A DNA stretch of 64,000 nucleotides from Alphaproteobacteria bacterium (GCA_025360605.1 JANYBV010000057.1:2033-66032); one strand, 5' to 3'. Shown: positions 25,648-42,124, numbered from the stretch's first letter. The notes: generated from the letters alone by a model not told the origin. A program made the numbers and translations.

Positions 25648-28380
25648 ATGAGCGTATCGATTGCTTTAAATAATGCGCTTACCGGCCTGAATGTGAATCA
25701 GCAGGCGCTGACTGTATTGTCGCAGAATATTGCCAATGCGAACACGCCCGGTTACAGCAAGCAGTCGATTAATCAGCAGTCGGTTACTATTAATGGTCAG
25801 GGCGAGGGCGTTAGCATTCAAAGTGTGACGCGTAAAGTAGACGAATATCTTGTCAGGGCGGCGCAGGATCAGACATCGCAAGTCGGGCAGGCCAGCACTC
25901 TTAATGACTACTATACGAAGATTCAGCTGCTGCTTGGTTCCCCTGGCAATAAAAACAGTATCGATTCGTATGTGAATACCTTTTTTAATTCAATCCAGTC
26001 ACTGGTACTCACACCGGATAATACCACCTTACAGCAGTCAGTCGTCAACGGCGGTATTGCGGTCGCCAAGCAGTTTAATCAATTGGCGCAGGGGTTGAAC
26101 GGGCTTCAGTTTCAAGCCGATCAGGATATTACCTCCGCTATCAACACGGTAAATATCGACCTAAAAAATGTCTTCAATCTAAATAAAAATATTGCTCAGG
26201 ACACGGCTCTTGGCAGGTCGGTGGCTGATCTGGAAGATCAGCGTGATAATCTGATTAGAGATATTTCTAGTTACGTGAGTGTTAAATCATTCAAGAAGTC
26301 TGATGGTTCTATCTTCCTGACGACATCGAACGGTATCAGCATGCTTGATAGCAACCTTTACCAGATGTCCTATTCGCCGGCTACATCCGCTGACAGCTTC
26401 GGGCGTGATTCGGTCGTGTCGCCGATTACGCTGTCACCCGTGGATCAGCAGGGTACTATTATCGGAACCACCACAAACCTGACCACCAGCGGACCGCCTT
26501 CTCAGGTTACCACCGTTTTGGATAATGGTAAGTTATTCTCTTTATTAAACCTGCGCGATAAAGACATTCCGAACATCAACAGCCAGTTGGATTCTGTTGC
26601 CGCCAACCTGCGCGATCAATTTAATGCGGTTCATAATGCCGGTAGCGGTTATCCTGGCACCAACACACTAACGGGTACGCGTTCGGTGAATGCGTCCGAC
26701 TACAGCGAATGGAGCGGCAAGGTCCGCATTGCCCTGTTGGATACCAATGGTCAACCGGTGCAGTCTGTTTACTCTGATGAAACTTATGGCCAGCAGTCGT
26801 TAAACCTTGATTTATCGAAGCTGGATTCTGGTAATGGTCCGGGCTCTCCCAGCGTGCAGGGTATCATCAATGCGATCAACCAGTATTACGGTGGGGCGCA
26901 GAATAAAGTCGAGCTGGGTAACCTCAATAACGTGCAGTTGATTTCGGACAACTCTATGCTACCGAACGCAGCAGCCGATTTTAAGTTCGACTTTAACCTG
27001 AATAATATTTCGTCGAAATCGTCGAATGTTTATGTGACGGGCGTTACCGTGCAGGACAATCTGGGCGTTACGATGCCAACCACGTCTACCATTCCGTCCT
27101 TTACGCTTAATGCGGCCAATACCTACGTGACAACGGCAGCCAGTAGTACGGTTACGGTCAATACCACACAGACGAACAATCTTGTGAATGGCCAGATTAT
27201 CTTTCTGTCCACACCTCCGGCAGGTCCAGTGGCGGGCACATATGACGGTATTAACCCTAGTGCATTAGGTGGCTATTTCAGGGTGTCTAACGTAACGCCA
27301 ACCAGTTTCGATATTGGTGTAACGAATGCGGCGATTATCGGAACCAATTATGGTGTGGCGGGGCAGACGGCTAACCCATCGTATGCGACAGCGCCAGCAG
27401 GAGGCGATACGAGAACCAAAAGCAATGGGTCGGTTACTGCCGACCTGAGTGCTAACTCCGGCGCTGCTTTTTATACGGTTACTGCCAACGTCGGAGTTGA
27501 CGATGGTTCTGGAAATGTGGTGACTTCGCAAATCAGCTATCGGATCAATAACAATCAGCCTTCAGCACTCGGTCTGGCGTATGGCGGCTTAAGTGCTAAC
27601 GGTGCCGGTACTGTGATAAATCCATCCACTTATGCCCAGCGGGTAACCGCTAAACTTGTGGACGCCAATGGTGTTGAGCTGGGTAAGGTTAATGGACAAT
27701 ATGTGGTTTCGCAAAATGGCTTTCTGCAGATTCAGGCCGGTGATTCAAAGATGTTTCTGGCCATTGACAGCCTTGATAGCAAAGAGCTGGGAAAGCCGAA
27801 TGCGTCCCCGTCGGTTGCTGGGACCAATCGTGGATTTTCACATTATTTTGACCTGAACGATTTTTTTACGAGTAATGCGCCGACCAGCACTGGCGACGCG
27901 GTGACCGGCAGTGCTAACAAGCTAACCGTTGCAAGCCGCATTCAGGCCAATAACAGTCTTCTTAGTCTTGGCACATTATCTCTCGGCAATAGTTCCGTCG
28001 TGACGGGGACATCTCCCAATTATACCTACCAGTTGACTCCGGGTGATAACAGCACCGTAGCGAAGCTTGCCGCAGTCGCAAACCAGTCTATCATATTTTC
28101 TCCGGCTGGCGGGTTAGGGGCCACTACTCAAACACTGAGTGGCTATATCGGTCAGGTGATTGGCGGAATCGCAACTAACGCCAGCACCTCTTCAACTGGC
28201 AGCGCTAATGCGCAGGCATTGCTGGATAGCTACAAGCAGCAAAGTTCTGCCGTTAGCGGCGTTAATCTGGATACGGAGCTGGCTAATACGGTGATCTACC
28301 AGAACGCGTACGCTGCCTCGGCACGTATTATTACGGTAACCAATCAGTTGTTTGATTCTTTATTACAGTCAATCCAATAG
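25648..28380 (+). CDS. flgK: Hook-associated protein FlgK (910 aa, large insertions)
   Basis: SQNIANANTPGYSKQ at N-terminus; SGVNLDTELAN...QNAYAASARII at C-terminus. Confidence 0.93.
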   Translation: MSVSIALNNALTGLNVNQQALTVLSQNIANANTPGYSKQSINQQSVTINGQGEGVSIQSVTRKVDEYLVRAAQDQTSQVGQASTLNDYYTKIQLLLGSPGNKNSIDSYVNTFFNSIQSLVLTPDNTTLQQSVVNGGIAVAKQFNQLAQGLNGLQFQADQDITSAINTVNIDLKNVFNLNKNIAQDTALGRSVADLEDQRDNLIRDISSYVSVKSFKKSDGSIFLTTSNGISMLDSNLYQMSYSPATSADSFGRDSVVSPITLSPVDQQGTIIGTTTNLTTSGPPSQVTTVLDNGKLFSLLNLRDKDIPNINSQLDSVAANLRDQFNAVHNAGSGYPGTNTLTGTRSVNASDYSEWSGKVRIALLDTNGQPVQSVYSDETYGQQSLNLDLSKLDSGNGPGSPSVQGIINAINQYYGGAQNKVELGNLNNVQLISDNSMLPNAAADFKFDFNLNNISSKSSNVYVTGVTVQDNLGVTMPTTSTIPSFTLNAANTYVTTAASSTVTVNTTQTNNLVNGQIIFLSTPPAGPVAGTYDGINPSALGGYFRVSNVTPTSFDIGVTNAAIIGTNYGVAGQTANPSYATAPAGGDTRTKSNGSVTADLSANSGAAFYTVTANVGVDDGSGNVVTSQISYRINNNQPSALGLAYGGLSANGAGTVINPSTYAQRVTAKLVDANGVELGKVNGQYVVSQNGFLQIQAGDSKMFLAIDSLDSKELGKPNASPSVAGTNRGFSHYFDLNDFFTSNAPTSTGDAVTGSANKLTVASRIQANNSLLSLGTLSLGNSSVVTGTSPNYTYQLTPGDNSTVAKLAAVANQSIIFSPAGGLGATTQTLSGYIGQVIGGIATNASTSSTGSANAQALLDSYKQQSSAVSGVNLDTELANTVIYQNAYAASARIITVTNQLFDSLLQSIQ

Positions 28381-29380: not shown

Positions 29381-29857
29381 ATGCTAAATCAGACAGCACA
29401 CATAACTGCAGTAACTACAATGTCGACCATGATAGAGACGATCAAGACGCGCTTTGGCGATGTAAGCGTGGATACCAGCAAGACAATCATGTTTCCTCTT
29501 GGGTTGCTTGGTATGCCGGAGCGTTTTCACTTCGTCGTCACCAGCTTTCCTAATCCGAAGATGCAGCAATTCATGTTGCTTCAGTCTCTGGATGATAAAA
29601 ACCTCTCCTTTATTACACTGCCGCTGGATAGTAAAAACAGCATCATAGCACCCGATGACATTAAAATTGCGTGCAGGGACATGCAGATGGATGAAGCGAA
29701 TGTTGCAACCCTTCTGATTGTATCGGTGCACCGTAACCTTGACGGGGTACGTTTGTCGGTGAATGCCCGCGCTCCGCTTCTGGTGGATGCCGGACAGAAA
29801 ATCGGCGCACAGTATGTCTTTCAAAACGATCAGTATAAAGTACAACACATGCTATAA
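29381..29857 (+). CDS. fliW: Flagellar assembly factor FliW
   Basis: KTRFG, I.FPLGLLG, LLQSLDD..LSFI, NARAPL...G.Q; GGAAGG before ATG 29381. Confidence 0.88.
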   Translation: MLNQTAHITAVTTMSTMIETIKTRFGDVSVDTSKTIMFPLGLLGMPERFHFVVTSFPNPKMQQFMLLQSLDDKNLSFITLPLDSKNSIIAPDDIKIACRDMQMDEANVATLLIVSVHRNLDGVRLSVNARAPLLVDAGQKIGAQYVFQNDQYKVQHML

Positions 29858-31032
29858 TGGCAACGGTCAAGTGCGCTGATGTTCTGAATACATTTTCTTG
29901 TCTGGGCGAGTCCTGCGAAGACACGTGCTGTCAGGGCTGGTCGATGCAGGTGGATGACGCCACCAAACAACTCTACGAACAATCGGCTCCTGAATTATTA
30001 GATTCGATTGAACCGGCGCAGGAAGCGTCGTGGATTATGCGAAAAAACCCCGCCACAGGTTTTTGTGTCAAATTCGACAATGGCTTATGTGGAATTCACA
30101 AAGAATATGGCGACCGTTTTTTAGGCAATGCCTGCCATTTTTATCCGCGTGCTACACGTGCGCTCGGCTCCCACCTTATTATGACGGCAAGTTTATCCTG
30201 TCCGGAAATCGCGCGGATTGCGTTGATTGAGGGACACACGTCCGCTATGGCGGATAAAGAGATTGAGCGCCTGCCGTTTGGTCTCAAAAATTATCTGCCT
30301 GTGGGCATGAACGAGGACGACGCGCTGGCGGTTCATCAAGTATTTTTATCAGCATGTGCAGATGAATCCGCGAGTGCCGAACAGACATTTTTGCGTATCG
30401 CCAGTGCTGCGCGGTCGCTGGAGCGCATCGATCATGCAGGATGGCCGAGCATGGCTGGCTATTATATTGAACATGCCGATTCGCTCCTGCCGCCGCCCGA
30501 GACAAACGAGGTGGATCCCTTCAACCTGCTGCATGCGTTGTGTGGGTTGATTGTGGCCTCCCATAAGCCCATGTCGGCGCGGTTGCGCAGAACCATTGAA
30601 ACGATGGAAGCGGCGCTGGCGGTGACGCTGGACTGGACGAAGGTACAAATATCAGCGGATGACAGAAGTCTAAATGCCTATCGTCAGTTGCAGCATGCAT
30701 TACATAAAGAAGACACACTTTTCGTGGAGCAGGTGTTGCGGCGTTGGCTGCAGATGCAAATGTCGCTGGCGCTCTTTCCTTTCAGCGGACTGGGAAACAC
30801 CCTGTCAGAGCGCGTTACCGTGATTGGCGTGCGGCTTGCAATAATTCGGCTTGCATTATTTTGCAATTGTAGTATTCGTAGGGAAGAATCGCTACCAAAT
30901 GTAGTGATAAGCGTAGTACAAAGTTTGTCTCGTTTTCTTGACCACCTTGGCGACGCGTCGTTTTCGATGATGATATTCACCGAAACCGGCTGGACGGAAG
31001 AGGCAAGAATGCGCGGGCTTCTAAAAAAATAA
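29857..31032 (+). CDS. fliB: Flagellin lysine-N-methylase FliB
   Basis: FSCLGESCEDTCCQGW, C......LCGIH..YG......C..YPR, LSCPE; adjacent to flagellin. Confidence 0.85.
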   Translation: MATVKCADVLNTFSCLGESCEDTCCQGWSMQVDDATKQLYEQSAPELLDSIEPAQEASWIMRKNPATGFCVKFDNGLCGIHKEYGDRFLGNACHFYPRATRALGSHLIMTASLSCPEIARIALIEGHTSAMADKEIERLPFGLKNYLPVGMNEDDALAVHQVFLSACADESASAEQTFLRIASAARSLERIDHAGWPSMAGYYIEHADSLLPPPETNEVDPFNLLHALCGLIVASHKPMSARLRRTIETMEAALAVTLDWTKVQISADDRSLNAYRQLQHALHKEDTLFVEQVLRRWLQMQMSLALFPFSGLGNTLSERVTVIGVRLAIIRLALFCNCSIRREESLPNVVISVVQSLSRFLDHLGDASFSMMIFTETGWTEEARMRGLLKK

Positions 31033-31108
31033 TAACAAAAAAATTTAAAATAGAATACAGGGAGTTAGGTAGTAATCACTGTTGTTTTCTGCCGCTTTCA
31101 GGGTTTTA

Positions 31109-31124
31109 TTAATCTTATGTTAAC
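31109..31124 (+). promoter_or_regulatory. CtrA-binding box upstream of flagellin
   Basis: TTAA-TCTTATG-TTAAC matches TTAA-N7-TTAAC exactly. Confidence 0.75.
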
Positions 31125-31154
31125 GTTTGAGGGGTAATAATTATTGTTAGTGTG

Positions 31155-31235
31155 GCCGTATCCTCAATGTATGAGGTGTGGCGGCATTACTAGATGAAAG
31201 CATGTAGCTTTCGATTAACAACGTCCATGTAGGAG
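31155..31235 (+). promoter_or_regulatory. Structured flagellin 5' leader with three AUGUA-pentaloop hairpins
   Basis: CCTCA-ATGTA-TGAGG, GAAAGC-ATGTA-GCTTTC, TCC-ATGTA-GGA (last overlaps SD AGGAG). Confidence 0.75.
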
Positions 31236-31241
31236 ATTACT

Positions 31242-33833
31242 ATGACAAGCTCAATTAACACCAACATTGCTGCGTTTTTTGCTCAGGCAAATATCGCGGC
31301 TGCTTCCCAAAACGCTCAATCATCCGTAGCCCGACTTTCAAGTGGTAACGTCATTGTTCAGGCATCTGACAACGTGGCGGCACTTGCAACCGGTACTTCT
31401 CTTCAGGCTCAGGTAAGTGCTCTTAAAACCGCACAGACCAACGCTTCGCAGGGAACCAGCCTTCTTCAGGTGGCTGACGGTGCTCTTGCGCAGATCGGTA
31501 ACATTCTTCAACAACAGCAATCTCTGGCTCTCCAAGCGGGTTCCGGTGCTCTGACGAACACCACTCGCGGGTTCTTGAACCAGCAGTTCCAAGCGCTGAC
31601 AAACGAAATTAACATTCTTTCAACCGGCACATCGTTTAACGGCGTGCAGTTGATCGATGGTTCTATTGCAACAGGCGGTTCTTCTTCGTCTAACGTCATC
31701 CAGAACAATGCTCTCGTTGGTTCTGGCACCACCATTACACCTGCTGGCTTCACCGACTTAACAGCAGTTACCAACCAGTCGAAAGCAGGCTTTACCTACG
31801 TAACCGCCGCTTCTTCATTTACCGGTTCGGCTACCGGCTTTACTGTTGCTACGGTGATCACCCAGCCAACCAACTCGTATGATAAGTCGTTGTACGGTGA
31901 TATTTCTACCACCGGTACCTTTACCACCACCGCAGTGGGTGGCGTGGGTGCGATTACCGCCTACAACATCAACTACACCGCCACCGACGGCACCGTGTAT
32001 AGCGGTTCGATCGCTCCATCGGCTGTGACTGGTACATTGACTTCCGGTAACTTCACGCTGACGGCAACCACCAACGCTTCATCCCATGCTACGTTGAAGT
32101 TCACCGTGGGTGCAACCGGCTTTACCACCGCTTCTGACAACAGCTTGGCAATTGACACGGCTCTGAAAGCCAACGTTAGTGGCTATACCTTTACGTCAGG
32201 TACGTTTGGTTCGGCTCCAGCCATCGTCCAGCCAACCAGCTCGAAAGCAGATGCTTCACTGTATGGTGATTTGTCACAGGGTGCGGTCAGTGTTCAGCTT
32301 GCAGTCGATGCTAACACTACTACGGCCAGCACTGCTGCTGCTAAAGGCTACCTGATCACCTACACGCTGAACGGCACTGCCTATAAAGGCTTCCTTGCTG
32401 GCGATAACAGCACGACCGGTACGGCAGGTCACCTTGGTGTGACGGCGGCTCAGTCGGTGACGTTGTCATCGGGTGATGACGTGAACCATGCAACTATTGC
32501 GTTCACTGCCAACACCCAGTTTGGTGCAACCATTGCTTCAACCGTTGACCAGACAGCCAACATTCTGTCGGCAATTCAGGCCAACCTTGCTGGTTCCACC
32601 GCCTTTAACGCTACGAAGGCTGGTACGGTAACCGGTGAAGTGTCGCAGACCGGTATCGGTTCGGTATCCTTCACCAGTGCTCCAACGAAAAACGATACGA
32701 CGTTCGTTGGTGACCTGAGCAAAGGTGTGTTCGCGGTATCTGGTTCGGCTGTTTCGGGCTACGCTGTGAGCTATGCGCTCAACGGTTCAACCTATCAGGG
32801 TAACTTCTCTGCTTCCGAAGTGACCAATGGTGGAACATTGGCGCTCACCAATGGTACCGGTGTACTTGCATTCAGCATCAGTGCTGGTGCGACCACAACG
32901 GCAAACGCAACTACCCTCCAGACCGCGTTCACCAACCAGTTCTCGGCTGCAACGGCACACGCTAGCCATCTGGTTGCCAACACGCTGCAAAGCAACGGTG
33001 CCGGTGGTACCATTGCTGGTTCTGCCATCACTGCTGCTTCTACTGCCGGTTCCATTCTGAATGGTTTCGATGGTAGCAAAGCAATCCTGAAGTCAGACAA
33101 GTATGGTGCAAGTGCCACTAACCTGCCTCCGGTTTCCAACTTCTCGGCTACCGGCTCAGGGACTTCTGTGGTGTTCTCCGTACAGATTGGTACCGATACC
33201 TACACCACTCAGGGAACGGTTACCACTTCCGGTCCTCTTAGCACAGGTGTGTTCGACGGTTCAACCGGTAAACTGAACTTCTACAAGAACGGTGACAAGA
33301 CCAACAATGCCAACGAAGTTCTGACACTGGATCTTACCGGTCTCGGCGCAAGTGCAAGGTTTGATTCTGCTGCTGCAGTTTCCAATTTTGCAACCGCACT
33401 TAACAGTGCGTTTGGTGGTGGTGGTTCAACCGGTTCAGGTGGTTTGAGCTTCCAGTTGGGTAGCACAACCAGTTCGACCGTTACCGTGAACATCGGTAGC
33501 GCGAAAACTACTGCGCTGTTCGGCTCAACGGCTCTGGACATCTCGACACAGGCAGGTTCAACGACCGCTGCTGGTATCGTGGCAACCGCTATCAGCACTG
33601 TAACGTCCTTACGTGCAGGTGTGGGTGCGCTTGAATCGCAGTTCAACTTCGCCGCTGCGGCTCTGCAAACCAGCGTTCAGAATCAGGATGCTGCTCGCGG
33701 GCAGTTCCTTGATACTGACATCTCAACTGAGTCCACCTCGTATGCTACCTCGCAGGTTAAACTGCAGGCTGGTATCTCGGTGTTAGCTCAGGCCAACCAG
33801 TCGCTTCAGGCCCTCCTGAAGCTGATTCAGTAG
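31242..33833 (+). CDS. fliC: Flagellin (863 aa)
   Basis: SINTN, RLSSG, LQVADGAL, FNG; C-terminal LRA.VGA, D.DI..E, SVLAQANQ. Confidence 0.95.
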   Translation: MTSSINTNIAAFFAQANIAAASQNAQSSVARLSSGNVIVQASDNVAALATGTSLQAQVSALKTAQTNASQGTSLLQVADGALAQIGNILQQQQSLALQAGSGALTNTTRGFLNQQFQALTNEINILSTGTSFNGVQLIDGSIATGGSSSSNVIQNNALVGSGTTITPAGFTDLTAVTNQSKAGFTYVTAASSFTGSATGFTVATVITQPTNSYDKSLYGDISTTGTFTTTAVGGVGAITAYNINYTATDGTVYSGSIAPSAVTGTLTSGNFTLTATTNASSHATLKFTVGATGFTTASDNSLAIDTALKANVSGYTFTSGTFGSAPAIVQPTSSKADASLYGDLSQGAVSVQLAVDANTTTASTAAAKGYLITYTLNGTAYKGFLAGDNSTTGTAGHLGVTAAQSVTLSSGDDVNHATIAFTANTQFGATIASTVDQTANILSAIQANLAGSTAFNATKAGTVTGEVSQTGIGSVSFTSAPTKNDTTFVGDLSKGVFAVSGSAVSGYAVSYALNGSTYQGNFSASEVTNGGTLALTNGTGVLAFSISAGATTTANATTLQTAFTNQFSAATAHASHLVANTLQSNGAGGTIAGSAITAASTAGSILNGFDGSKAILKSDKYGASATNLPPVSNFSATGSGTSVVFSVQIGTDTYTTQGTVTTSGPLSTGVFDGSTGKLNFYKNGDKTNNANEVLTLDLTGLGASARFDSAAAVSNFATALNSAFGGGGSTGSGGLSFQLGSTTSSTVTVNIGSAKTTALFGSTALDISTQAGSTTAAGIVATAISTVTSLRAGVGALESQFNFAAAALQTSVQNQDAARGQFLDTDISTESTSYATSQVKLQAGISVLAQANQSLQALLKLIQ

Positions 33834-39589: not shown

Positions 39590-42124
39590 ATGACTTTATA
39601 TGGAGCATTATACGCAAGCGTCGCGGGTCTTAGTGCACAGAGTAATAAACTCGGTGTTATTTCCGACAACATCGCCAACGTGAACACTGTTGGTTACAAG
39701 GCAGCGTCTTCGACGTTTGCCGCGCTGGTAACCGGAAGCGGTAACGTCAGTGCATACACACCAGGTGGTGTATTGGGTGGCAGTCAGGCACTGGTGACAA
39801 CACAGGGGTTGTTGCAAACAACCACTTCCGCTACTGATATTGCCATATCTGGGCAGGGTTTCTTTGTAGTGAACCAAAAGCCAGATCAGACGGGGCAGGT
39901 TCTCTACACACGTGCAGGATCATTTACGCAGGATGCGCAGGGCAATTTTACGAATACGGCCGGTTTATTCCTTCAGGCATGGCCTCTGGACAGGAATGGC
40001 TTGCTGCCAGGCCAACCAGGCAATCTGAACACTGTTTCAAGCGCCAACTTATCCAGCTTGAACACGGTAAACGTGCAAAATCTGGCAGGTACTGCATCGG
40101 CAACGTCTTTAGTCTCTATCGGTGCTAATCTTAAATCATCACAATCCGTTTTATTAGGTGCGGGTGGTACAGCTACTTTGGATAAACTGGACACATCCAA
40201 CTATCCCGTCAATGGAGCTGCGCTTATTGTTCCTACGGCGGTTGATAGCATTGTCAGGGGAGATAAAATCAATATCTCTACGGGTGCCAACTCCGCAGGT
40301 TACACCTTCACCTATGGTGGTATCAGCCAAGGCCGCGACATTATTTCAGGCGCTAATGGTGACTTGGCGGTGGCGCTTAAAGCAGGCACCAAATCAGCAA
40401 ATGCTGCAGCCGGTTTTGACACTACCAACGGTAGTAACGTGATTACCGTTCACGCGACAGGCCATGGGCTTGCAACCGGAGATGCGATTACATTTTCTGC
40501 ATTCCCGCAAGCCACTCTTAGCAACGTTCCGGCAGCTATATTCTTAAGCAACCAGTTTAAGGTAAACGTGATTGACGCTAACAACTTTACCATCACGCTT
40601 CCCGTTGGCACCACCCCGCCAAACGCGACTACGGGTGCACCGACTGGCGATGCTACGATTGTAACGCGTCCTTATGCAGGGAATATCCTTGATGCAACCA
40701 ATGCATCGTCACCGCTGCTTGGGGTTACAGGGACAACGAATATTGATCCGAACGGGCTCTCATTCACCATCTTTACTCCGGCTTCAGGCACAGTAAAGTT
40801 TACCTACACCGCATCCACGCCAAACGCATCCCTGCATCAGTTTAGTACCCTCAACAACCTTGCGGATGCCATTAATGCGACCACAGGGCTCACTTCACGT
40901 GTCGTAGCCAACAGCCATTTATGGATTGGTGCGACCGATGCGACACAGGCGGTCACCTTTGCAAACGTGCAATCCACCACTAGCGGTGGCGCACCAGCAG
41001 CAACTCCTGTGCTTGCAGGGGTGGACTGGGTGCGTGAATTAGGATTGAGTAACGTTGCAAGTGGTGCCAATCGCTTCTCGTCACTCAACTCGCTTGCCGC
41101 GCTTGTAAACGCATCGGCGGGCTTAACCGGAGCTGTAGAAAACCCTCTGGCGACAGCGGATCTGAAGATCAACGTGGTTGATCCAACGGATACGATTACA
41201 TTTAAAGATGTCAATACCAATACCGGCAGTCTTATTTCGCAATTAGGTCTGGCTAATTCACAAAACAGTGGTGCTGTCAGCTTGCAGACTGTCGGACCAA
41301 CCGGTCCTGCGTATAACGCACAGGTGTCAGCCAATAACATGGCATCCGGTTCGATTTCACCACAATTCAGCCGTCCGGTAACCGTATATGATGGTTTGGG
41401 AACAGCACATAACCTGAACGTTGCTTTTGCAAAACTGCAAAACAACACATGGGCAGTAGAAATTTATGCGCAGCCTGTCAGTGATATTGCTGCGTCTAAC
41501 GCTACCTTCATCAACGGTCAGGTCGCTACCGGTACGATTAAGTTCAACGGTGACGGCAGTTTGCAGAACGTAAGTGCTTCACTCACCGCGCCTATCGCGG
41601 TTAACTGGACGAACGGTTCTGTGGCTAGCACTATCAACTTTAATTTCGGAACACAAGGTTTGCCATTTGGTACGCCTAACGCTACTCAGATTGGTAAGAC
41701 CGATGGTTTAAGCCAGTTTGATAGTGGTTACAACGTATCGTTCGTAAACCAGAACGGTGCGCCGGTCGGATCGCTGACCGCGATCGCAATTGATAGTAAC
41801 GGCTATATTACGGCTAGTTACAGCAATGGTGAAACCCAGAAACTGTACAAAATACCTCTGGCCTCGTTCACTGATGCTAACTTGTTGCAAGCTGCCTCCG
41901 GCGATGCGTATGCGCAGTCGAATGGCTCGGGTATCGTCAACCTGAAACAATCAGGGCAAAGCGGCGTGGGGTCTATTTCGTCAGGTGCATTAGAGTCGTC
42001 CAACGTGGAATTGGCTTCGCAGCTTACGGATATGATCGTTGCGCAGCGTGCGTATCAGGCGAACAGTAAGGTCATTCAGACCGCAGATAACCTGTTGCAA
42101 AGTTTGGATCAGATTATTCAGTAA
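39590..42124 (+). CDS. flgE: Hook protein FlgE (844 aa, large insertions)
   Basis: SDNIANVNTVGYK, DIAISGQGFFVV, YTRAGSF, LESSNV.L...LTDMIVAQRAYQAN. Confidence 0.95.
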   Translation: MTLYGALYASVAGLSAQSNKLGVISDNIANVNTVGYKAASSTFAALVTGSGNVSAYTPGGVLGGSQALVTTQGLLQTTTSATDIAISGQGFFVVNQKPDQTGQVLYTRAGSFTQDAQGNFTNTAGLFLQAWPLDRNGLLPGQPGNLNTVSSANLSSLNTVNVQNLAGTASATSLVSIGANLKSSQSVLLGAGGTATLDKLDTSNYPVNGAALIVPTAVDSIVRGDKINISTGANSAGYTFTYGGISQGRDIISGANGDLAVALKAGTKSANAAAGFDTTNGSNVITVHATGHGLATGDAITFSAFPQATLSNVPAAIFLSNQFKVNVIDANNFTITLPVGTTPPNATTGAPTGDATIVTRPYAGNILDATNASSPLLGVTGTTNIDPNGLSFTIFTPASGTVKFTYTASTPNASLHQFSTLNNLADAINATTGLTSRVVANSHLWIGATDATQAVTFANVQSTTSGGAPAATPVLAGVDWVRELGLSNVASGANRFSSLNSLAALVNASAGLTGAVENPLATADLKINVVDPTDTITFKDVNTNTGSLISQLGLANSQNSGAVSLQTVGPTGPAYNAQVSANNMASGSISPQFSRPVTVYDGLGTAHNLNVAFAKLQNNTWAVEIYAQPVSDIAASNATFINGQVATGTIKFNGDGSLQNVSASLTAPIAVNWTNGSVASTINFNFGTQGLPFGTPNATQIGKTDGLSQFDSGYNVSFVNQNGAPVGSLTAIAIDSNGYITASYSNGETQKLYKIPLASFTDANLLQAASGDAYAQSNGSGIVNLKQSGQSGVGSISSGALESSNVELASQLTDMIVAQRAYQANSKVIQTADNLLQSLDQIIQ

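Follow-up and report, generated by a model that had tools for sequence, protein, structure and literature searches.

The flagellin gene in a 64,000-nucleotide window of alphaproteobacterial DNA (the whole stretch analysed) is preceded by two conserved stem-loops with ANGUA pentaloops, the second of which lies over the Shine-Dalgarno (SD) sequence. We regard it as likely that these stem-loops, hairpins 2 and 3 of the leader, are the operator of a flagellin-FliW-CsrA switch in which an alphaproteobacterial CsrA has shifted to accept ANGUA. As far as sequence can tell, the element is real, is conserved, and fits a flagellin CsrA operator but lacks the GGA of a canonical site. Three features expected of a partner switch are present, namely csrA, fliW, and flagellin in one genome, a CsrA tail with N55 alongside the N55-proximal residues of FliW, and two leader hairpins with one over the SD. 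Measured against the canonical A(N)GGAX site, the element has the C-G closing pair, the first A, the free N, the first G, and the last A; the loop GGA itself is replaced, and 74 of 76 pentaloops in Rickettsiales leaders read ANGUA.

All three AUGUA hairpins described in an earlier note on this DNA are present, each within the 209 bases that separate a FliB-type methylase gene from the flagellin gene. The core of hairpin 1 (CCTCA-ATGTA-TGAGG, 31162-31176), thought to be extendable, folds out to the limits given in the table; TCC-ATGTA-GGA of hairpin 3 (31224-31234) does overlap the SD AGGAG (31231-31235), which lies seven bases from the flagellin ATG (31242); and fliW is two genes upstream of flagellin, as a PF02623 match establishes, with the methylase gene between them. 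The 2.68-Mb genome contains 60 AUGUA-loop hairpins, the flagellin leader is the sole cluster of two or more, and density predicts about 0.006 ANGUA triples genome-wide; the leader trio therefore exceeds chance. The folding energy of the leader as a whole was unremarkable (z = -1.05) and was set aside as uninformative. In the predicted ensemble, the closing pairs of hairpins 1 and 2 form with probabilities of 0.87 and 0.95-0.98, against 0.06-0.07 for hairpin 3, a weak structure in naked RNA. Several proteins of this locus are unusually long: FlgK (25648-28380, 910 aa), the hook protein (39590-42124, 844 aa), and flagellin, whose open frames in relatives reach about 1,670 aa.

Features of the flagellin leader and its neighbours, in window coordinates
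Feature	Position	Strand	Basis
fliW, 158 aa	29381..29857	+	Pfam PF02623, 56 bits (cut-off 25)
FliB-type flagellin lysine-N-methylase; neighbour, outside the switch	29857..31032	+	NCBIfam NF038110, 138 bits (cut-off 85)
CtrA box TTAA-N7-TTAA(C), likely flagellin-promoter activator site	31109..31124	+	TTAA halves invariant in 26/26 family leaders
Putative -10 region TAATAAT, AT-rich	31135..31141	+	Suggested by consensus in family-leader alignment
Hairpin 1, likely 5'-terminal stem-loop	31148..31189	+	Outer stem conserved, apex variable
Hairpin 1 AUGUA loop, optional third site, A-U closed	31167-31171	+	ANGUA apex in 5/30 family leaders
Hairpin 2, upstream site GAAAGC-ATGTA-GCTTTC	31196..31212	+	C-AUGUA-G pentaloop, 6-7 bp stem, pair covariation
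Hairpin 2 loop	31202-31206	+	C-AUGUA-G pentaloop
Hairpin 3, SD-overlapping site UCC-AUGUA-GGA(G)	31224..31235	+	Pairing in 78 distinct sites
Hairpin 3 loop	31227-31231	+	AUGUA
Flagellin, 863 aa	31242..33833	+	Pfam Flagellin_N + Flagellin_C

The flagellin gene is likely transcribed from a CtrA-box promoter, with the box defined as in 10.1101/739516, and its start site would lie near 31145-31151. A sigma-70 scan of the leader returned no convincing promoter and did not pick up TAATAAT, and no FliA scored over the cut-off in the genome. A ctrA gene did (G000:C17:159570-160241, G000 being the source genome), and it is preceded by two CtrA boxes of its own (C17:160266 and 160321). Direct control of flagellin by CtrA would be unlike sigma54 or sigma28 schemes.

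Multiple observations bear on the operator reading. First, the two-hairpin element is conserved in Rickettsiales, the order to which we infer the source genome belongs from the label of its closest leader and flagellin matches in a scan of GTDB. A search of 61 genomes gave a flagellin-type match in 52 and leaders from 43, 42 after one duplicate was dropped; the nine left out had best flagellin matches that were weak, truncated, or hook-protein-like. Of these 42 genomes, 41 have an ANGUA hairpin no more than 30 bases from the start codon, 35 have at least two ANGUA hairpins, and one has an ANGGA hairpin near the start. Expressed by loop, 74 of the 76 C-ANGNN-G pentaloops end in UA. Alignment of 26 family leaders left as invariant columns the two TTAA halves, GCA.(G)TAGC, TCCA.GTAGGAG, and the ATG. 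The earlier note's three-loop design shrinks accordingly to a conserved unit of two sites, hairpins 2 and 3: hairpin 1 keeps its outer stem and has an ANGUA apex in just 5 of 30 family leaders, and was rejected as an essential third site. Its invariant AUGUA loop also gives way, since any of the four bases can stand at loop position 2 and the conserved form is thus ANGUA. The loop-to-loop spacing of hairpins 2 and 3 is mostly 19-30 nt, and the closing pair is C-G in 47 of 57 upstream sites and 71 of 78 SD sites. In one genus (L012, L013), the upstream loops are AAUUA or AUUUA and have lost the G at position 3.

Conservation of the loops with covariation of the stems, which the earlier note had proposed as a check, holds for hairpins 2 and 3. 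At 57 distinct upstream sites, chosen like the SD sites by loop sequence alone, pairs 1-5 are paired in 49, 48, 49, 47, and 41 cases, with several pair types, and exceed in every instance the maxima from column shuffles (48, 42, 42, 38, and 32), which ignore kinship and hence are not probabilities. At 78 distinct SD sites, pairs 1-3 are paired in 74/78, 78/78, and 71/77, with pair 2 represented by C-G (63), U-A (7), G-C (4), and A-U (2). The joint presence of fixed, asymmetric loops and covarying stems tells against hairpins that act without a protein, as mRNA stabilisers, an RNA-only translation brake, or a DNA-level motif, and despite the structure-only look of hairpin 1 and the stability of hairpin 2 by itself we give this idea very little credence, as hairpin 3 is too weak alone and the distance to the start codon is kept under differing promoter types.

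Second, the element extends well beyond Rickettsiales. A blind pattern scan covering 12 of the 64 parts of GTDB yielded 120 hits, of which 27 stood directly before flagellin (25 by tblastn, two by inspection); the other 93 did not and look like chance. The flagellin-linked loci bear the labels Rickettsiales, Midichloriaceae, tick endosymbiont, Rhodovibrio, Rhodospirillaceae, Azospirillaceae, Geminicoccales, and Hyphomicrobiales; others are listed as unclassified Alphaproteobacteria or Pseudomonadota, and a single bin is labelled 'Gammaproteobacteria'. When 21 of these genomes were tested, csrA was present in 20 and a CsrA of the clade described below in 19, the exceptions being G066, with ordinary CsrAs only, and G062, in which no csrA was found. 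G066 is the bin labelled Gammaproteobacteria, and its ANGUA leader (L089) could be a misbinned contig or a true exception. The promoter preceding the element varies, being of CtrA type in 35 leaders and of sigma54 type in 12.

We also drew 401 genomes evenly over the Alphaproteobacteria, a sample that includes unpublished G287 as one FlbT-positive row. CsrA scored over the cut-off in 82, FlbT in 153, and both in five, so the idea that CsrA is rare in this class finds no support at the lineage level, and the CsrA clade and FlbT are almost mutually exclusive (5/401 shared). Among 78 CsrA-positive genomes, 62 had FliW and 57 a flagellin match. From 54 CsrA-positive genomes (G477, which has both systems, one partial match, and one duplicate excluded), we read 93 leaders, which does not cover every paralogue. 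Outside Rickettsiales, an SD-proximal ANGUA hairpin was present in 35 of these 54 genomes and in 26 of 36 families, usually on one flagellin paralogue per genome; an ANGUA hairpin lay within 100 bases in 40, and the fetched leaders of 14 had none. One leader (L365, G132:C1:889110-889710) has three tandem SD-site units CCA(T/A)(A/G)TAGGAGATAT 3' of an upstream AGGUA hairpin.

Control groups behaved differently. For FlbT-only genomes, 30 of 40 searched and represented by 34 leaders, one had an SD-proximal ANGUA hairpin and none had two hairpins. In a Bacillota-type outgroup, where 30 csrA loci gave 13 flagellin leaders, ANGUA hairpins were found in 0/13, ANGGA in 12/13, and two ANGGA in 9/13, and the layout GC-ANGGA-U-GC ... 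UUC-AAGGA-GGA puts ANGGA at both places that match the ANGUA sites. This two-site architecture bears out the view that the leader is laid out like a flagellin-mRNA operator of CsrA. In FliW-positive genomes from other classes of this phylum, ANGUA hairpins occurred in 1/19 and 0/6, a weak control because ANGGA hairpins passing the same filter were also scarce (2/19 and 3/6).

Third, ANGUA leaders travel with a distinctive CsrA. The binder was expected to be encoded outside the window and a search for csrA elsewhere in the genome was advised; three csrA genes exist, and the presumed binder is a flagellar csrA adjoining flgB/flgC (G000:C17:67071-67340). Its product scores 72.5 bits against Pfam PF02599, over the cut-off, and 69.4 against TIGR00202, just below the cut-off of 70.1, and it has the C-terminal tail and N55 of FliW-binding CsrAs, N55 aligning with that of 5DMB. 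It has F36 and A40 in place of the Ala36 and beta-branched residue 40 that every sampled outgroup CsrA has at the second-G pocket. The two other genes (G000:C32:176-358 and G000:C45:4433-4630) are of ordinary type, with Ala36 and no N55 tail, and are missing from most relatives; one is just upstream of rimP and one at a contig end. Relatives have CsrA in 50/60 and FliW in 48/60, most with a single csrA of clade type. FlbT and FlaF gave no match over the cut-off in the source genome, which is 100% complete.

In a tree, 135 distinct alphaproteobacterial CsrAs fall on one side of a branch with SH-aLRT support of 96, and support was 95/91 after removal of trait columns 3, 15, 34, 36, 40, and 43, using a 65-row subset with few columns, a rough bootstrap, and long-branch rows excluded. 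The CsrA clade and the loop go back to a single origin, and their co-occurrence thus counts as one event rather than many. Residue 36 in 72 CsrAs from ANGUA-leader genomes is Phe (65), Tyr (5), or Ser (2) and never Ala, whereas Ala36 is found in 86/86 other CsrAs (35 outgroup, 12 ordinary paralogue, 39 same-phylum). Residue 40 is mostly Ala in the clade versus Val/Ile elsewhere; R44 (135/135), N55 (127/135), L2, and L4 are conserved. Neither F36 nor Y3 survives as a sole determinant, since carriers G050 and G423 have S36 with ANGUA loops and five carriers have Leu in place of Tyr at residue 3. A monomer model of CsrA (pLDDT 60, pTM 0.34) was set aside.

These substitutions fall where the second G of the loop is bound. 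According to PMC3791407, RsmN hydrogen-bonds both Gs through the backbone of Ala54, Val58, Ile60, and Arg62; with Arg62 given as the equivalent of Arg44, these are residues 36, 40, 42, and 44 in CsrA numbering. In docking work (PMC5668361), Ala36 sits at the G11 site. The core bases of A(N)GGAX are described as being read by backbone atoms and as irreplaceable (PMC4005645), so the side-chain changes of the clade must act indirectly. Replacement of Ala36 by Phe, Tyr, or Ser and of Val40 by mostly Ala, with Tyr3 and Phe34 nearby, may reshape the second-G pocket, which has likely been altered in a manner that would change specificity.

The earlier note's notion of a CsrA variant with a new code thus keeps its altered pocket but loses strictness, because CsrAs of the same clade also face AGGA(A/U/C) loops. 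Such pentaloops occur in 24 of the 54 CsrA-positive class genomes; they stand at both sites alongside an F36 CsrA in G089, G246, and G443, they are the only kind in those three and in G191, G317, and G364 (three of the six with F36), and in eight leaders an upstream loop of this kind is combined with an ANGUA SD site. C-G-closed pentaloops in the class sample end in UA (61), AA (25), AU (11), or AC (5). Those ending in AA, AU, or AC have G at position 2 in 32/41 cases and by sequence are ordinary AGGAX loops, and ANGGA pentaloops number 2/113. The clade therefore probably reads two pentaloop types, ANGUA and AGGA(A/U/C), and rarely the classic ANGGA(X) loop; for ANGUA two registers are conceivable, one with U in the second-G pocket and one with G3 there and U flipped out.

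Coexistence of these loops leaves some room for a view in which no real recoding has happened, clade CsrA preferring GGA and ANGUA being a tuned low-affinity site tolerated through two-site cooperation. AGGA(A/U/C), a CsrB-type site in the account of PMC7652899, sits at the same places in those 24 genomes, some of the CsrAs reported in PMC13443453 tolerate a hag leader with GAA in place of GGA, and the SD supplies a GGA adjoining loop 3. We nonetheless judge this view unlikely: a base that is merely tolerated would not stay fixed over 26 families, the upstream site is without any GGA, the UA ending (74/76 in Rickettsiales) and the scarcity of ANGGA in the class sample point the other way, and Ala36 is gone in 72/72 carriers.

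Another protein, or an ordinary csrA paralogue, might instead read the loops and leave clade CsrA to other targets, as could be argued from the 14/54 CsrA-positive genomes whose fetched leaders lack the motif and from G066 and G062, which carry it and in which clade CsrA was not found. This seems improbable to us given that the source genome has neither FlbT nor FlaF, that the only csrA of most relatives is of clade type, that position and layout equal those of the outgroup CsrA operator, and that no GGA-type flagellin target remains for clade CsrA in Rickettsiales (ANGGA 1/42).

Finally, FliW itself fits a flagellin-FliW-CsrA switch. P46, N128, A131, and Q144 are invariant in 49 FliW homologues and are spaced as P26, N108, A111, and Q124 of B. 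subtilis FliW, a cluster described as contacting CsrA N55 (10.1101/2020.07.02.184341). In the switch that we favour, one CsrA dimer would span the loops of hairpins 2 and 3 on a CtrA-driven flagellin transcript and would stabilise the weak 3-bp hairpin 3 over the SD, blocking ribosome entry. Hook completion would allow flagellin export and free FliW, which would bind the CsrA tail at N55 so that the mRNA is released, and rising cytoplasmic flagellin would recapture FliW. Such relief by FliW upon flagellin export has been documented in B. subtilis and C. jejuni (PMC7652899, PMC4894983). In the source genome, no two-site target other than flagellin was found. The search for other SD-proximal ANGUA targets there gave a single candidate (C24, 3 bp, one hairpin), two non-flagellar ANGUA pairs are of uncertain meaning, and a sequence-only leader model, applied to the question of a wider regulon, matches the window once. 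A small RNA with multiple AUGUA loops, which the earlier note had suggested seeking, was not found in this genome. A strong GGGCGGGC-AGGTA-GCCGCCC hairpin lies outside the flagellar locus, on the minus strand of G000:C35 near 67663.

It is possible, although we lean slightly against it, that the system is an ancestral alphaproteobacterial FliW-CsrA checkpoint in which CsrA prefers ANGUA over ANGGA and is for the most part orthogonal to CsrAs of the E. coli and Bacillus types, a few residues around 36 and 40 set the code, and FlbT/FlaF displaced it in most lineages. Half-dismantled intermediates, with CsrA but no FliW or N55 and one leftover ANGUA hairpin, would then persist. In four genomes with FlbT and no FliW (L391, L392, and L394, from G151, G293, and G424, and G307), the clade CsrA has lost N55 and the leader its SD site, and these may be intermediates of regulator replacement. 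Two of the four retain a single GTTC-ATGTA-GAAC hairpin some 65 bases upstream of flagellin.

Neither ANGUA sites nor a FliW-CsrA system of Alphaproteobacteria turned up in the open literature, subscription papers being outside the scope of the search. Rfam, one of the checks proposed earlier, gave only chance-level matches to window positions 30900-31400 (E 1.6-9.9; no family) and no matches among 20 related loci. In the study of PMC13443453, 555 CsrAs were assayed against a leader with GGA; its list has five Alphaproteobacteria plus Jidaibacter bearing the clade CsrA signature, and the string 'GUA' is absent from its main text. No treatment of ANGUA or clade CsrA was found in PMC7366521, PMC13277936, or PMC13063649. 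Clade-type CsrAs of cultured Thalassospira, Ferruginivarius, and Hypericibacter are, by the supplement of PMC13443453, already in an expression library. If the reading is correct, a CsrA code described as fixed by the protein backbone would have been rewritten in nature, and the pairing of clade and ANGUA would show a route by which the CsrA fold changes its code. Regulons of clade CsrAs would then escape GGA-based target prediction, and an orthogonal translational repressor could result. The Alphaproteobacteria, including free-living Rickettsiales and Midichloriaceae, would have a second and probably older flagellin checkpoint.

In Caulobacter, FlbT and FlaF provide a post-transcriptional flagellin checkpoint that acts on the leader; these proteins are unrelated to CsrA and FliW, and neither is present in the source genome. 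The flaA 5' UTR of C. jejuni (SL1, SL2), as presented in PMC4894983, is similar in having two leader stem-loops, the second over the ribosome-binding site, with compensatory stem changes and FliW present. It differs in its loops (ANGGA versus ANGUA in the source genome) and in its promoter (sigma28 versus CtrA type or sigma54 type for ANGUA leaders), and the flagellar CsrA of the source genome, unlike that of C. jejuni, lacks Ala36. The Hag-FliW-CsrA switch of B. subtilis, as portrayed in PMC7652899, 10.1101/2020.07.02.184341, and PMC13443453 (PDB 5DMB), shares the CsrA tail with N55, the N55-proximal cluster of FliW, and flagellin as apparent sole target. Unlike in B. subtilis, fliW and csrA are unlinked in the source genome, and loop base 4 is U in ANGUA leaders, unlike in hag. 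ANGUA sites are also pentaloops, whereas removal of the sixth loop base is reported to abolish B. subtilis CsrA activity (PMC13443453); AAGGA and AGGGA pentaloops are listed as high-affinity Rsm sites (PMC4005645). With the A(N)GGAX sites of RsmE and RsmN as described in PMC4005645 and PMC3791407 (PDB 2JPP), the ANGUA loops have in common C-G closure, A at positions 1 and 5, a free position 2, and G at position 3, and R44, L2, and L4 are kept in the protein; the second G, described there as irreplaceable, is U in ANGUA, and pocket residues 36 and 40 differ.
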